Positions 7,927 to 29,455 of a DNA stretch of 64,000 bases are shown in pieces; within the stretch, counting starts at the first letter, position 1; each line of letters begins with the position of its first letter. This stretch comes from an uncultured Flavobacteriaceae bacterium (GTDB lineage: Bacteria > Bacteroidota > Bacteroidia > Flavobacteriales > Flavobacteriaceae): assembly GCA_964595535.1 (NCBI GenBank), contig CAZQRD010000004.1, positions 5,071 through 69,070 of the forward strand. The letters are read 5' to 3'. A model generated the notes under the pieces. It was not told the DNA's origin and did no database searches. It saw only the letters and a list, made by a program, of their open reading frames with translations. The position numbers were made by a program, and so were the translations under genes.

Positions 7927-8622
7927 ATGAAAAAAATAGGATTAATAGGTGGCATGAGTTGGGAATCGACCCTTTTGTATTATCAGCTCCTTAATAAAAA
8001 AGTAAAAGCTATGCTGGGAGGATTGCACTCGGCAAATTGTGTGATCGAATCAGTTGATTTTTCTGAAATTGCATATTTACAAGGGAAAGATGATTGGAAA
8101 AGTCTGGATGATCTTATGATCAAAAGAGCTAAATCCCTAGAAACCTCTGGAGCGGAGCTCATCTTGATATGTGCAAATACGATGCATTTAAGTGTCGGGG
8201 CCATAGAACAACACACGAAAATACCGATTGTACATATTGCGGAAGTCACAGCAGATGAAGTCAAAAAGGCACAGCTTGATAAAGTAGCTTTACTGGGTAC
8301 AAGATTTACCATGGAAAGGGATTTTTTTAAAAACATACTCAAGGGTCATGGCATCGAGGTAGTGGTTCCGGAACAAAAGGATCGGGAACTGGTAAATGAC
8401 ATTATTTACAAGGAATTGGTCAGAGGAGTTTTAAAAAGGGAATCCAAAGATATTTATTTACGCATTATTGAAGATCTAAGAATGAAAGGAGCTCAGGGCG
8501 TCATTTTAGGATGCACAGAGATTCCTTTGTTAATCAAACCTGAAGATCTAGATCTTCCCATATTTAATACGACTAAAATTCATGCTGAAAAAGCTGTGGA
8601 ACTTGCTTTAACCGATCTGTAA
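7927..8622 (+). CDS. Aspartate/glutamate racemase family protein (YgeA/RacX-like)
   Basis: IGLIGGMSWEST and the two catalytic Cys in ICANTMH and LGCTEIP. Confidence 0.92.
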   Translation: MKKIGLIGGMSWESTLLYYQLLNKKVKAMLGGLHSANCVIESVDFSEIAYLQGKDDWKSLDDLMIKRAKSLETSGAELILICANTMHLSVGAIEQHTKIPIVHIAEVTADEVKKAQLDKVALLGTRFTMERDFFKNILKGHGIEVVVPEQKDRELVNDIIYKELVRGVLKRESKDIYLRIIEDLRMKGAQGVILGCTEIPLLIKPEDLDLPIFNTTKIHAEKAVELALTDL

Positions 8623-24262: not shown

Positions 24263-24700
24263 ATGGGTATTTCTGATCTATATCTAGGCATAGGGCATAG
24301 AAGAAACATCAGTCACTTTGCGAACATTGTTCGCATTGCAATATCTGATGATCAAATTTCACCCGAAGAAATAGCGTTTCTCACGAAAGTATCTAAAAAG
24401 TACAATATCACTGATGAAAATTTTAAGAAGATCTTGAAATTCCCTGAAAGTGTCCCCACCATTGCACATATCAACTGTATAGAACGGATTGAAAGATTGT
24501 ATGATTTATTAATTATGATCAAGGCAGATCATCACATTCAAATTGAGGAGGTCTCCGTGTTGAGGAAAATAGCTACCGGCCTGGCCTTCCCACTGCATGA
24601 GGTAGATCGAATTGTAGATGAATCAATAACAATTGATACTGATTCAACAGATCAGGAGACTTTCACAAAAGCCATTCTCAAAGTAATGCACTTAAAATAA
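24263..24700 (+). CDS. TerB-like (tellurite resistance family) helical protein
   Basis: Two TerB-type repeats: IAISDDQISPEE and MIKADHHIQIEE. Confidence 0.8.
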   Translation: MGISDLYLGIGHRRNISHFANIVRIAISDDQISPEEIAFLTKVSKKYNITDENFKKILKFPESVPTIAHINCIERIERLYDLLIMIKADHHIQIEEVSVLRKIATGLAFPLHEVDRIVDESITIDTDSTDQETFTKAILKVMHLK

Positions 24701-24885: not shown

Positions 24886-24917
24886 TTTAGACATATCTAA
24901 AATAATATTTATATTTG
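24886..24917 (+). promoter_or_regulatory. Putative MntR/DtxR operator (TTTAGA-N4-TCTAAA) abutting the -7 box TATATTTG
   Basis: Perfect 6-bp inverted arms at 24886-24891 and 24896-24901; -7 box at 24910-24917; ATG at 24932. Confidence 0.7.
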
Positions 24918-24931
24918 CCAAAAAAATTAAC

Positions 24932-25591
24932 ATGTATTCACAGGCAGAGGAGAATTATTTGAAGACTATTTATGCTCTTGAAAAGGATTTTTCAAATGAA
25001 GTCAGCACCAATCTTATCGCAAGTAAAATCAAGACCAAAGCATCTTCGGTAACTGATATGGTAAAAAAACTGGCCAATAAAGACCTTGTGGTGTATAAGA
25101 AGTATCAAGGCGTCTACCTAACTGAATTGGGGAGGTTGAGCGCTTTGAAGGTAATCAGGAAGCACAGGCTGTGGGAGTGTTTTTTGGTTCAAAAACTTCA
25201 ATTTAATTGGGATGAGGTGCATGACATCGCTGAACAATTGGAACATGTGAAATCAGAACTCCTCATAAATAAGCTTGACGCCTTTTTAAGGTATCCTAAA
25301 CTCGATCCTCATGGAGATCCTATTCCCGATGCTCACGGAAGGATCATTCTGAGTAAATCAATGAGCATATCAGATATGAAGATTGGTTCTGCCGGAACTT
25401 TTGTTGGTGTAAAAGATTCATCAGCAACTTTTCTGAAATATCTTAACAAGAAAAACCTGGCTTTGGGTGATAAGATCAGGGTGATCGACATAGAACCTTT
25501 TGATAATTCGTATCATATAGAAACAAAAACACATAGGTTGGTAATTACTAGTAATATAGCCGACAACCTTTGTTTAAAAAATGTCAAATGA
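24932..25591 (+). CDS. mntR: MntR/DtxR-family metal-dependent repressor with C-terminal FeoA/SH3-like domain
   Basis: EENYLK, recognition helix [29 protein letters not shown]. Start refined to 24932 (track start 24821 lies upstream of the promoter). Confidence 0.88.
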   Translation: MYSQAEENYLKTIYALEKDFSNEVSTNLIASKIKTKASSVTDMVKKLANKDLVVYKKYQGVYLTELGRLSALKVIRKHRLWECFLVQKLQFNWDEVHDIAEQLEHVKSELLINKLDAFLRYPKLDPHGDPIPDAHGRIILSKSMSISDMKIGSAGTFVGVKDSSATFLKYLNKKNLALGDKIRVIDIEPFDNSYHIETKTHRLVITSNIADNLCLKNVK

Positions 25592-26610
25592 TGACCTATA
25601 ACCCGCTAACGGCTCTCTTAATTTTTATAGGATTTTCAGTATTGATCTGGGCTTTTTTTCGACCGGTCAAAGGATGGTACTGGTTGCTAAAAATCAATTG
25701 GCAGTCAAACGAAAAGACAGTAATGGAAGACATTCTCAAGCAGTTATACCGCCTGGAGAGTTATGGAGCCGAAATTGACATCACTGTACTTACCAATTCA
25801 CTTAAGATAAAAGACAGCCATGTGATACAAGCCATTCATAAAATGTCGGTCAATGAGTTGGTTAAGGTTGAAGGTGATTTGCTTCGGTTGACAAAAGAAG
25901 GAAGACAGTATGCCCTAAAAATAATTAGGGTGCATAGGTTATGGGAAAAGTACCTGGCCGAAAAGACTGGCTTTGATAAAACTGAATGGCATGACAGGGC
26001 TGAAGAAATGGAACATGTTTTGAGTCATGAAGAAACAGATATATTGGCTGATCAATTAGGAAATCCGATGTATGATCCGCATGGAGATCCAATTCCGAAC
26101 ACCCTTGGAATACTGAAGGAAATTGAAGGGGAACCCTTGTCATCCATGTCGGTAAATAGCCTAGGTAGAATCGTTCATATTGAAGATGAACCAGACGTTA
26201 TTTACAGACAGATTCTTGCCGAAAATATTCATATTGGCTCGATCATCAGATTAGAGGAAAGAAATAACGAACGTATCGTTTTTTATGCGGAAGGAGAAGA
26301 ATTCGTTCTGGCTCCTATTGTTGCCGCTAATATAACTGTTGCCGAACTGAAAAAGGATGTTGTTAAAGATGAGGGCACAGTTAGATTGTCCAGTTTACTG
26401 GAAGGTGAATCGGCAAAGATCGTGGGGATGTCTAAGGAGTGCCGTGGAGAAAATAGAAGGAGATTACTGGATCTTGGATTTGTTAAAGGAACGGAAATCA
26501 AAATAGATCTTAACAGTCCCATGAAAAATCCCGTAGCCTATGCGGTTAAAGGAACCAGTATTGCACTGAGAAATGATCAGGCCTCAAAAATTCTTATTAA
26601 TAAATTATAG
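25588..26610 (+). CDS. Membrane-anchored DtxR-like protein fused to two FeoA domains
   Basis: N-terminal TM ([16 protein letters not shown]) + RPVKG; [25 protein letters not shown]; FeoA-1 ([10 protein letters not shown]...IHIGSII) and FeoA-2 ([12 protein letters not shown]...SPMKNP...IALR). ATGA overlap with the mntR stop. Confidence 0.85.
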
Positions 26611-26612
26611 TT

Positions 26613-27377
26613 ATGTCTAAAAAAACAGATCTCGCATGTGACTCATGTGCCCATTATAATTCAGAAGGACTTAAGAAACTTGGAGTTGACACAAGTAATT
26701 TTGATTATGTTGTCGCTATTGCCGGAAATCCTAATACTGGGAAAAGCACGGTATTTAACGCTTTGACAGGACTAAGACAGCACACCGGGAATTGGCCGGG
26801 AAAAACTGTCGCCAGAGCAGAAGGAGCCTTTTTCTATGCCGACAAAAAATTTAAATTAGTGGATCTCCCGGGTACTTATTCGCTCTTGTCAACTTCGCAG
26901 GATGAAGAAGTGGCGCGAAATTTTATTCTATTTGGGAAACCTGATGTGACCATAATAGTTGCTGACGCCTGTCGTCTAGAGCGCAACCTGAATCTAGTAT
27001 TGCAGATTCTGGAAATTACAGACAAAGCTGTTTTATGTCTTAATTTGATGGATGAGGCAGAAAGAAATGAGATTGAAATTGATACAAGAATGTTGTCCCG
27101 TGAATTGGGAATTCCGGTTGTTGCCACCAGTGCAAGATATCAACGGGGTATTCCTGATCTTATTCAAACGGTTGATGAAATTGCTTCTGGTAAGCTTGTG
27201 TGTAAGCCCAGAAGAATTAAGAATGTACCGAATAAAATACTAAAGGCGGTTACTAAATTGAGTGCAGAAATCGAATCGGAGTTTCCAAATATTCCCAACA
27301 GCCGTTGGATAGCCTTACGTTTGCTCGAAGGTGATAACCGGATCATTGAGGCTTTAAAAACAGGAGAATTAGTTTAA
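26613..27377 (+). CDS. feoB: FeoB GTPase (N-terminal cytoplasmic) half
   Basis: G1 GNPNTGKS, G2 NWPGKTV, G3 DLPG, G4 NLMD; N-terminal CDSCAH. Confidence 0.93.
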
Positions 27378-27378
27378 T

Positions 27379-28800
27379 ATGGAAAAAGGAGCTGCTAATA
27401 GAATTTTAAATTTAACGAATGAGCTGAGGTGGAAGATTGGTGAAGATTTTCACGACCTTCTCGCTGAAGGAATCTATGCAGATGCATCTGATATTGCTGA
27501 AAGTTCTGTCAGTAAGACTTCAGAAAAAAACAAGTTTAGGATCGATCGGAAGATTGATGAGATCGTCACAAGCAGAATCTGGGGATTTCCCATCATGCTA
27601 TTGCTGCTGGGCCTTGTTCTTTGGCTGACCATTGAAGGAGCAAATTATCCTTCTGCCATGCTTGCGAATATTTTACTGGACGATTTCCATCCCTTCCTTA
27701 AAAATTTATCTGCCGCCATAGGGATACCCTGGTGGCTTGATGGATTTTTGCTTGATGGGGTATACTTGGCGGTAGCCTGGGTGATCGCAGTGATGCTTCC
27801 TCCAATGGCTATTTTCTTTCCCTTGTTTACTTTGTTGGAAGATTTTGGATATTTGCCCAGAGTTGCGTTCAATATGGACAACCTCTTTAGAAAATCAGGA
27901 GCCCATGGTAAACAAGCCCTTACCATGAGTATGGGATTCGGTTGTAATGCTGCAGGTGTTGTTGCCACGCGTATAATTGATAGTCCAAGAGAGCGATTAA
28001 TCGCTATCATCACTAATAACTTCTCACTGTGTAATGGCCGCTGGCCAACCCAGATCTTGATCGCGACAATTTTTGTTGGAGCACTGGTTCCAAAATCTTT
28101 TTCAAGTCTTGCCTCTTTGTTGGCGGTGGTTGGAATTGCTGTACTTGGAATCGCCTTTATGTTCCTGGTTTCCTGGGGGCTATCGAGAACAGTGCTCAAG
28201 GGAGAAGTTTCTACTTTTAATTTAGAATTGCCTCCATACCGACCTCCAAGGTTTTGGAAGACCATTTATACCTCCTTGATTGACAGAACAATGATTGTTC
28301 TTTGGAGGGCGATTGTTTTTGCCGCTCCTGCCGGAGCATTGATCTGGCTCATCTCCAATATTCATATTGGTGATTTAAGTTTGGCGGGATGGACGGTTCA
28401 AAGTTTGGATGGATTTGGATTTTTGCTAGGACTAAATGGAGTCATACTATTGGCTTATATAGTTGCTATTCCGGCCAATGAGATTGTCATTCCAACTATT
28501 TTGATGCTAACAGTTTTGGTTACTGGTATGACAGGAGGAGAAGGAGCAGGAGTAATGTTTGAATTGGATTCGATTTCTGACACAGGGGAGATTCTAAGAG
28601 CTGGTGGATGGACCTTATTAACAGCTGTTAATCTAATGCTGTTCAGCTTATTACACAATCCATGTAGTACCACGATCTATACAATATACAAGGAAACCAA
28701 AAGCGCAAAATGGACAATTGTCGCCTCCGTTTTACCAGTGGTCATGGGTTTTATAATCACTTTTTTAGTAGCTCAAATCTGGAGGATACTCGCTGAATAA
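27379..28800 (+). CDS. feoB: FeoB membrane (Gate/core) half
   Basis: [32 protein letters not shown]; starts 1 nt after the GTPase stop in a different frame. Confidence 0.9.
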
Positions 28801-28805
28801 ATAAA

Positions 28806-29455
28806 CAAACGGAGACTGATTTACAAATTGAAAGCGGCATGCTGCTCAAATATGCAGAAGAAGATGAAATTTCTTTACGTGAAATTGCTGTTCCGAGCAC
28901 TTTATTCCGATATGGAATTACAAAAGGAATAGAAATAAGAGTGGTGAATCAATATGTGAATATAAAGGATGAAAAAACTTTAGAGGAAATTTCGGGAATT
29001 ACAGATCTTGAATTAGGGCAAAAATTCAGTTGTTTAAAAAGGAAAACAGAAATATAGAAATTGCATTATTGTCTCATGTAATACTACCTATTGGCACTAA
29101 GGAAGTATCTTTTGAGAAGGTGGGAACCATAAATAAATTATGCTTTTCTCATCAATTAAGTGATAAGGTAGGTTTGGGATATAATGTTGGGTTTAATTAT
29201 TTTGGATATGATGATGGTTTTCTAACATATTCTGTGGCACTAGGTCTTGAAATTACGAGGAAGGCAGGAATATATATTGAACCCTATGGTAATATTGGCC
29301 TTTTTGATGAACCTCTTGCTAATATTGACTCTGGAATTACGTATTTGTTGAAAGATAATTTTCAGCTTGATTTTTCATTTGGAACGGGCCTTAATTATAC
29401 CATGAATTATATTTCGGCGGGATTTAGTTGGAACATTGCTCCTAAAGCCAATTGA
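28806..29455 (+). pseudogene. COG4313 / Phenol_MetA_deg-type outer-membrane beta-barrel 'transporter', truncated and frameshifted
   Basis: QTE..LQIESG...PSTLFRYG...SGITDLELG then +1 frame AKIQLFKKENRNIEIALLSH...NFQLDFSFGTG...SAGFSW. One G missing at 29016-29018; no start codon or signal peptide (in-frame TGA at 28794). Confidence 0.75.

Follow-up and report, generated by a model that had tools for sequence, protein, structure and literature searches.

What does a DtxR-family protein do when it is anchored in the membrane by its N terminus, ends in a FeoA domain and is encoded directly 5' of a feoB gene that lacks FeoA? The question is raised by a gene at 25588..26610 (plus strand) of a 64,000-nucleotide (nt) stretch of DNA from an uncultured Flavobacteriaceae bacterium (GenBank assembly GCA_964595535.1, contig CAZQRD010000004.1, positions 5,071 to 69,070 of the forward strand), which we call the window and whose first letter is position 1 in the coordinates below. 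The gene encodes a 340-amino-acid (aa) protein made up of a transmembrane (TM) helix, a DtxR-like sensor, an SH3 domain and a FeoA domain, and it lies in a four-gene operon between a canonical DtxR/MntR-type paralog and a split FeoB. Judging from sequence comparison and predicted structure, we regard it as about an even call that this protein serves as a FeoA subunit that is tethered to the membrane, senses Mn2+/Fe2+ and adjusts FeoB post-translationally, with transcription left to the neighbouring paralog.

A DtxR-type metal sensor with a membrane anchor and a FeoA domain

The protein belongs to a widespread family, with 335 clusters at 50% identity recovered at E <= 1e-30 when 1.84 billion cluster representatives were searched exhaustively. 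The Flavobacteriaceae contain more than 100 close relatives that are full-length (about 340 aa, 66-92% identity), and these are named in the databases only as "FeoA domain-containing protein" or "DtxR family Mn-dependent transcriptional regulator". Full-length relatives, with E values down to 1e-203, are present in many phyla and rule out a chance open reading frame (ORF); the sequence itself was found in marine sediment DNA metagenomes, and no RNA run contains it. Two sets of relatives were compared: a representative set of 146 full-length proteins among the best 150 of the 335 clusters, and a locus set obtained by scanning one genome per species, which gave 80 loci with full-length relatives (35-69% identity) in at least eight phyla. 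These loci are found in Flavobacteriaceae, Cyclobacteriaceae, Cytophagales, Saprospiraceae, Marinilabiliales and Ignavibacteriota, and further in Calditrichota, Gemmatimonadota, Chloroflexota, Acidobacteriota, Verrucomicrobiota and Latescibacterota. Cultured carriers include Maribacter polysiphoniae DSM 23514, Lutibacter oricola DSM 24956 and Cyclobacterium qasimii.

Hydropathy, AlphaFold2 (AF2) and the charge pattern place a TM helix at residues 6-24 (25603..25659), predicted to be oriented N-out/C-in. The segment is the sole hydrophobic one in the protein (Kyte-Doolittle mean of 2.28 over 19 residues), and AF2 models a helix at residues 6-23, so that the TM helix announced in the preliminary description of this locus is present. 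In TM-bearing members of the representative set, Lys and Arg together average 0.09 ahead of the helix and 4.5 over the 15 aa that follow it; this near absence of positive charge before the helix and its abundance after it therefore indicate an N-out/C-in anchor, and for the same reason the reading of the hydrophobic N terminus as a signal peptide was dropped. The helix is found in 110 of the 146 representatives (~75%) and in 73 of the 74 proteins from the locus set with a complete N terminus. The 36 representatives without it form a single derived clade in part only: ten group in one cluster, and the rest are scattered among TM-bearing relatives.

Directly after the helix, as had also been described, comes FRPVKG (residues 24-29), a PxxG-type juxtamembrane motif that together with a basic amphipathic linker spans residues 24-44 (25657..25719). 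P26 and G29 are invariant in 57 close relatives and kept in 71% and 79%, respectively, of the 110 TM-bearing representatives, and P6, L10, P26 and G29 are conserved across phyla. The linker has a net charge of +4.5 and is modelled with low confidence (predicted local distance difference test [pLDDT] score of 53-61). The earlier suggestion that FxPxxG recalls the last helix of an ABC-3 metal permease did not hold up: hmmscan of the N-terminal 54 aa, and of the same region of two distant homologues, gave no relevant match to ABC-3 or any other Pfam family at E up to 10, and the idea of an ABC-3 relic was dropped as unsupported. Nor did a Pfam search with the whole 340-aa protein, which has its single hydrophobic segment, find a multi-pass ABC-3 permease domain.

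The cytoplasmic part begins with a DtxR-type winged helix (residues 45-104, 25720..25899), in which the fold is kept and the DNA-contact surface is not conserved. AF2 builds helices at residues 42-58, 65-71 and 76-88 and strands at 92-95 and 98-101, and the first helix, alpha1, bears an EDxLK motif with the metal ligand D48. Pfam Fe_dep_repress matches residues 44-97 with 24.6 bits (E 2.9e-5), just missing the gathering score of 26. The metal-binding and dimerisation domain of DtxR proteins follows (residues 105-172, 25900..26103; Fe_dep_repr_C, 91.9 bits over residues 102-171), and then come a first SH3/FeoA-like domain with a HIEDEP motif (H197, E199, D200, E201; residues 185-255, 26140..26352) and a second, genuine FeoA domain, hereafter FeoA2, with a RRRLLDLGF motif and a net charge of +5.2 (residues 265-338, 26380..26601).

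The preliminary description had counted both of the last two domains as FeoA. Pfam FeoA (PF04023) does match two stretches, with a total of 84 bits against a cut-off of 23, and the second match covers profile positions 1-73 of 74. However, a sequence search of the PDB aligned residues 46-253 with DtxR, IdeR, SloR and ScaR, and since three-domain repressors align through residue ~253, the first of the two domains is the ordinary domain 3 of a DtxR protein. Residues 266-338, by contrast, match the stand-alone FeoA structures 2k4y, 2k5f and 2k5l and the FeoA domain of the Bacteroides fragilis FeoAB fusion (7r7b, E 1.4e-9), so that only the second domain stands as a true FeoA. The AF2 model (mean pLDDT 79.7) contains the winged helix, the dimerisation helices and two SH3-like barrels, with residues 256-262 as a low-confidence tether ahead of the last domain. 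Its best Foldseek matches are the three-domain Mn/Fe repressors 5zr6, 5cvi, 4o6j and 1c0w (E about 1e-16 to 1e-13; target-normalised TM-score 0.7-0.84). Thus, the protein shares its fold, dimerisation domain, SH3 domain 3 and primary and ancillary ligands with DtxR, IdeR, SloR, ScaR and MtsR, and differs from them by the membrane anchor and the extra FeoA domain.

The metal sites are intact, as had been proposed. The ligands of the 340-aa protein are D48, H116, E120, H135, E139, E142, H143, D163, H165, H197, D200 and E201; all twelve positions are occupied and, with the exception of position 139, are conserved family-wide at 88-100%; the range for those of the dimerisation domain is 94-100% in the 146 representatives. 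For the TM-bearing proteins among the 146 representatives, the values are 97% for D48, 99% for H116 and E120, 100% for H135, E142 and H143, 99% for D163, 96% for H165, 91% for H197, 90% for E199, 98% for D200 and 88% for E201. The RRRLxDLG motif of FeoA2 is kept in at least 95% of the TM-bearing representatives, and the ligand and FeoA2-motif positions are conserved alike in members with and without the helix. The primary site is an Asp/Glu/Glu/His set of the Mn type, as in Bacillus subtilis MntR (D8, E99, E102, H103), and not the Met/Cys set of DtxR (PMC4805248). The protein thus has the His/Glu/Asp metal-binding dimerisation domain that characterises DtxR/MntR repressors.

The closest characterised protein is PgMntR (PG1044) of Porphyromonas gingivalis, a member of the twin-FeoA DtxR subfamily (Zhang et al., PLoS One 2016, PMC4805248), which was also the only paper returned by a literature search on membrane-anchored DtxR proteins or twin-FeoA function. 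Both proteins have the same four-domain order (DtxR N-domain, dimerisation/metal domain, FeoA1, FeoA2) and the EDxLK, HRLxE, HIEDEP and RRRLLDLGF motifs, and both share an operon with a feoB; the operon of PgMntR includes the FB2 gene, whose product FeoB2 is a Mn2+ transporter (PMC4805248). The predicted ligand set of PgMntR corresponds to that of the 340-aa protein position by position and with constant spacing, with 11 of 12 residues identical: D19/D48, H85/H116, E89/E120, H104/H135, E111/E142, H112/H143, D132/D163, H134/H165, H166/H197, D169/D200 and E170/E201. The twelfth, C108, takes the place of E139, a position that varies among E, D, H and C in the family. By mutagenesis, the PgMntR ligands bind Mn(II) and Fe(II) (PMC4805248). 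With its four domains, this ligand set and an operon containing a feoB without FeoA, the 340-aa protein belongs to the same subfamily. It differs from PgMntR in that the latter has no TM helix (D19 lies 18 residues from the start) and has been read purely as a repressor, whereas the locus described here has a split FeoB and a separate canonical DtxR paralog. S1 Fig of the PgMntR paper aligns it with homologues from Formosa (340 aa), Cyclobacterium, Ignavibacterium, Melioribacter, Cytophaga, Roseiflexus and Anaerolinea, and hydrophobic N termini of homologues are visible there; the paper makes no mention of a membrane segment (the word "transmembrane" occurs 0 times), and its discussion assigns no role to FeoA2 with FeoB2. 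The twin-FeoA subfamily as such is therefore known through PgMntR, and what is new is its majority, membrane-anchored form.

Linkage to a split FeoB

The start ATG of the 340-aa gene overlaps the TGA of the gene upstream (ATGA, 25588-25591), and the gaps to the next two genes on its 3' side are 2 nt and 1 nt, so the four genes of the operon are tightly coupled. The N terminus MMTYNP fits the family consensus MxxYNP; given this match and the ATGA overlap, a TTG at 25570 was dropped as an alternative start. The two downstream genes encode FeoB in two pieces, a soluble GTPase part of 254 aa (NFeoB; 26613..27377, plus strand; Pfam FeoB_N, 204 bits) and a membrane or permease part of 473 aa (27379..28800, plus strand; Pfam Gate, FeoB_C, Gate), which matches positions 224-594 of the TIGR00437 feoB profile. 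NFeoB ends within the cytosolic helical domain, with FeoB_Cyto matched at profile positions 3-46 of 90 only. The same 254 + 473 aa split is present in four independent contigs of the source organism, and FeoB is split in 61 of 74 loci from many phyla with varying junctions, which together rule out an assembly artefact. The remaining 13 loci, mainly in Gemmatimonadota and Acidobacteriota, have an unsplit FeoB of about 750 aa.

A feoB without FeoA lies directly 3' of the TM gene in all 80 loci. The ORF table itself places it there in 77; at the other three, feoB is present but was missed through artefacts of ORF calling. Across phyla, FeoB is 65-82% identical, compared with 35-69% for the TM protein. 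When every stop-to-stop ORF of 40 aa or more at these loci was searched with a hidden Markov model (HMM) of the FeoA2 domain, no stand-alone feoA was found in the operon. The search returned three small FeoA ORFs only, each of which belongs to a second, divergently oriented canonical feoB of 703 aa (L009, L016 and L017); therefore, the FeoA domain of the 340-aa protein is the sole FeoA of its operon. The second pairs (74-79 aa + 703 aa) are on the minus strand at 8354..10685 in L009, 8332..10663 in L016 and 8403..10760 in L017. Since such a canonical pair is present in some Flavobacteriaceae besides the operon described here, the two systems are suggested to be non-redundant, for example with one serving Fe2+ and the other Mn2+.

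NFeoB carries an N-terminal extension, C-x2-C-[PA]-x-H-...-L-x-[KR]-L-G, ahead of its G1 motif, which is conserved in the subfamily (L005-L083) and absent in two Gemmatimonadota loci (L046 and L084). In the window copy it reads CDSCAH at residues 9-14 (26637..26654). This C-x2-C-x-H extension may be a metal-binding or docking element.

The DNA-binding surface, the paralog and the operator

The first gene of the operon (24935..25591, plus strand) encodes the canonical three-domain paralog of 218 aa, which matches Pfam Fe_dep_repress with 55.7 bits, Fe_dep_repr_C with 102.9 bits and FeoA/SH3 with 36.3 bits. A longer start for this gene (251-256 aa) was dropped because its homologues are 218-227 aa long and because the operator and the -7 box described below would fall inside the longer ORF. 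A canonical paralog stands directly 5' of the TM gene in 42 of the 80 loci.

Conservation and charge were measured for the TM protein and the canonical paralog in one shared set of 44 genomes. The helix-turn-helix (HTH) is the least conserved part of the TM protein, with a conservation of 0.39 versus 0.54 in the paralog, while its dimerisation domain is its most conserved segment (0.71 versus 0.67); the corresponding values for the SH3 domain are 0.56 and 0.44, and FeoA2, which has no counterpart in the paralog, reaches 0.64. The net charge over alpha2, alpha3 and the wing is -1.95 in the TM protein and +2.68 in the paralog, and the difference in recognition-helix charge between the two has a Wilcoxon p of 1e-5. 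The recognition helix encoded by the neighbouring paralog gene reads KASSVTDMVKKL and that of the TM protein differs. Across the 44 genomes, the paralog stretch TKASSVTDMIKKL...YKKYQGV is nearly invariant, whereas the TM protein varies over the equivalent stretch and is acidic there, in agreement with the divergent recognition helix reported in the preliminary description. The S/T-V-S/T-x-M-x-K/R-K/R recognition pattern kept by the paralog is missing from the 340-aa protein, in which both HTH and wing are acidic and unconserved. In a manual alignment to DtxR numbering, V88 and D97/L98 stand where DtxR has R50 and R60. The acidity is not confined to loci with an adjacent paralog, as the HTH has a net charge of -1.7 at loci without one; in the wider representative set the charge is -0.56 for members with the TM helix and -1.75 for those without. 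The conserved recognition helix and basic wing of DtxR/MntR repressors are thus lacking in the 340-aa protein, although the fold is present, and the sequence comparison speaks against a conventional repressor role for the whole family.

An operator-like palindrome, TTTAGACATATCTAAA, precedes the four-gene operon at 24886..24901, with half-sites TTTAGAC and TTTAGAT and a 2-nt spacer. In most loci from Bacteroidota, a TTTAGNC-N2-GNCTAAA box lies 35-75 nt ahead of the first operon gene; the version in Ignavibacteriota is TTTAAGC..GCTTAAA, and one Gemmatimonadota locus has ATTAGGCATGCCTAAT. L081 has the operator doubled in tandem, and L037 and L052 each have two copies close together, of which the second is imperfect. 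Just 3' of the palindrome, a promoter-like -7 box, TATATTTG (24910..24917, plus strand), is located 17 nt before the ATG at 24935, and a -7-like box recurs in Flavobacteriaceae loci. The Bacteroidetes -7 promoter consensus is TAnnTTTG, which TATATTTG fits. Conservation extends to the operator and to the recognition helix of the paralog, but not to that of the TM protein. This pattern is explained most simply if the paralog acts as the repressor at the operator, and the product of 24935..25591 is probably the regulator that binds the operator of this operon.

A transporter subunit or a repressor

If the 340-aa protein is a subunit of FeoB, its parts could be assembled into the following mechanism. 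The transporter would be a separate type of FeoB, in most cases split, to which FeoB2 of P. gingivalis belongs and which possibly imports Mn2+. The protein would be anchored N-out/C-in in the inner membrane and would dimerise beneath it through DtxR domain 2, and the flexibly tethered C-terminal FeoA would dock on the separately encoded NFeoB GTPase, as FeoA does elsewhere in Feo systems. The DtxR-type sites would connect domain 2 both to alpha1 and to the first SH3 domain, such that occupancy by cytoplasmic Mn2+ or Fe2+ could rigidify the arrangement of winged helix, dimerisation domain and SH3 domain and thereby alter the availability of FeoA to NFeoB. Import would then be lowered post-translationally under metal-replete conditions, while transcription of the operon would be controlled by the upstream canonical DtxR/MntR paralog acting through TTTAGNC-N2-GNCTAAA.

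Known Feo systems provide parallels for part of this scheme. Transport in Shewanella oneidensis and Helicobacter pylori requires both FeoA and FeoB, and the two together suffice for it (PMC8749426, PMC10353542), and in the FeoA-FeoB fusion of B. fragilis (NFeoAB, 7r7b), FeoA stabilises GTP-bound FeoB (PMC8980893). Like that fusion, the 340-aa protein contains a full FeoA SH3-like domain with the LxxLG motif, is encoded with feoB and has its FeoA covalently joined to another component of the system; however, the partner here is a sensor and anchor module rather than NFeoB, and FeoB consists of two polypeptides. A stand-alone FeoA, in contrast, is a soluble protein of ~75 aa and not the C-terminal domain of a membrane-anchored protein of 340 aa. 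The preliminary description had proposed, among other things, a metal-sensing FeoA that switches FeoB, and the comparison favours this part of it, with a sole FeoA at 80 of 80 loci, conserved ligands and RRRLxDLG motif, and an acidic HTH, but the proposal, including the contact of FeoA with NFeoB and the loss of operator binding, is still an inference.

Several points weigh against a subunit that acts on FeoB. The winged-helix fold is kept, with pLDDT values of 81-88, and still matches Fe_dep_repress at E 2.9e-5. PgMntR, the only characterised member, shifts its own promoter in an electrophoretic mobility shift assay (EMSA) but bound neither a control fragment nor a second promoter (PMC4805248), which keeps DNA binding plausible. 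Furthermore, 38 of the 80 loci have no adjacent canonical paralog, absence being judged at the locus rather than genome-wide, and yet many of them keep the operator 5' of the TM gene. In addition, the direction of regulation and the identity of the metal are guesses.

These same observations (the preserved fold, the PgMntR promoter shift and the operators at loci without a paralog) are what speak for a membrane-tethered but genuine or bifunctional metal-dependent repressor, which would bind its own operon while anchored, like ToxR or CadC, and would use the extra FeoA domain for folding or DNA binding. PgMntR again lends itself to this explanation in that its DNA binding was lost without the very basic FeoA2 domain (isoelectric point 11.36); however, 700-1000 nM protein was needed and binding persisted in 1 mM EDTA (PMC4805248), such that the binding is weak and metal-independent, a pattern that, as we infer, fits weak electrostatic binding as well as canonical operator recognition. 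We judge a tethered repressor unlikely, since the HTH and wing are acidic both with an adjacent paralog (-1.95) and without one (-1.7) and form the least conserved region even though the operator is conserved across phyla, and since a canonical paralog with a conserved helix adjoins the gene in 42 of 80 loci. Moreover, only ~20 residues separate the TM helix from alpha1, and the domain would therefore be kept near the membrane. The preliminary description had also considered a cleavable regulator resembling Chlamydia YtgCR, which likewise combines a DtxR-family module with a membrane segment and is associated with a metal importer (PMC5599777). In such a latent regulator, the TM helix would be what is left of an ABC-3 permease, and a cut near PxxG would release a soluble, PgMntR-like repressor. 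The conserved PxxG motif does sit at the membrane-cytoplasm boundary, and soluble members without the helix exist (36 of 146 representatives, and PgMntR). Yet YtgC is a multi-pass ABC-3 permease and YtgR a cleaved, DNA-binding repressor, whereas the 340-aa protein has one TM helix, an N terminus without ABC-3 or other Pfam similarity at E 10, a FeoB rather than an ABC-3 system as its linked transporter, and no conserved DNA-binding surface. The HTH of the members without the helix is equally acidic (-1.75), and a cleavable regulator would need a DNA-binding-competent HTH, which is not conserved in the family; we consider this explanation highly improbable.

A further explanation does without regulatory switching. 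As a metal acceptor or chaperone, the protein could take up the imported ion in its high-affinity DtxR sites at the cytoplasmic exit of FeoB and hand it on, with its TM helix and FeoA domain acting as a scaffold that holds the halves of FeoB together. The position of the protein, anchored at the membrane beside the permease, and the break of FeoB inside its helical domain in most lineages are consistent with such a role. However, the TM helix also accompanies an unsplit FeoB in 13 loci, sites with affinities in the picomolar range are poor donors, and the ligands are arranged as in the allosteric, domain-bridging sensor sites of DtxR, which makes an acceptor or scaffold quite unlikely in our view.

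The more specific proposal, that a DtxR-family sensor has been repurposed from a repressor to a membrane-anchored transporter subunit that gates a (split) FeoB directly through its fused FeoA, is one we make tentatively and place somewhat short of an even call. We know of no DtxR-family protein with a non-transcriptional function, and the 340-aa protein would be the first; nor, to our knowledge, has any Feo system been shown to be controlled post-translationally by the metal that it transports. How FeoA acts on FeoB is acknowledged to be an open question (PMC8980893, PMC10353542). If the subunit proposal is true, the long-unclear role of FeoA would be wired to a metal signal in a natural system, and the PgMntR "repressor" would need reinterpretation. 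The family, with its 335 clusters, is a natural construct that couples FeoA covalently to a well-understood metal sensor and to the membrane, and the separate, soluble NFeoB is convenient for biochemistry and structural work. The pair of canonical and repurposed paralogs would offer a clean case for how a repressor fold loses DNA binding. The comparison also counsels caution in annotating these genes as "DtxR family Mn-dependent transcriptional regulators", and PgMntR is worth re-examining.

The operon is flanked by two further genes in the window. A TerB-like gene of 145 aa (24263..24700) lies directly 5' of it and is found in the same place in L005 (59% identity) and L006 (47%). On the 3' side of feoB, a gene of the Phenol_MetA_deg family, which encodes an outer-membrane barrel, occupies 28839..29455 and is frameshifted by a 1-nt deletion at ~29018 into ORFs 28839..29057 and 29030..29455. 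The near-identical contig L002 has a single ORF of 205 aa here, and the frameshift could be a strain variant or a homopolymer error. Homologues of the barrel gene are also located 3' of feoB in L007, L044 and L051.

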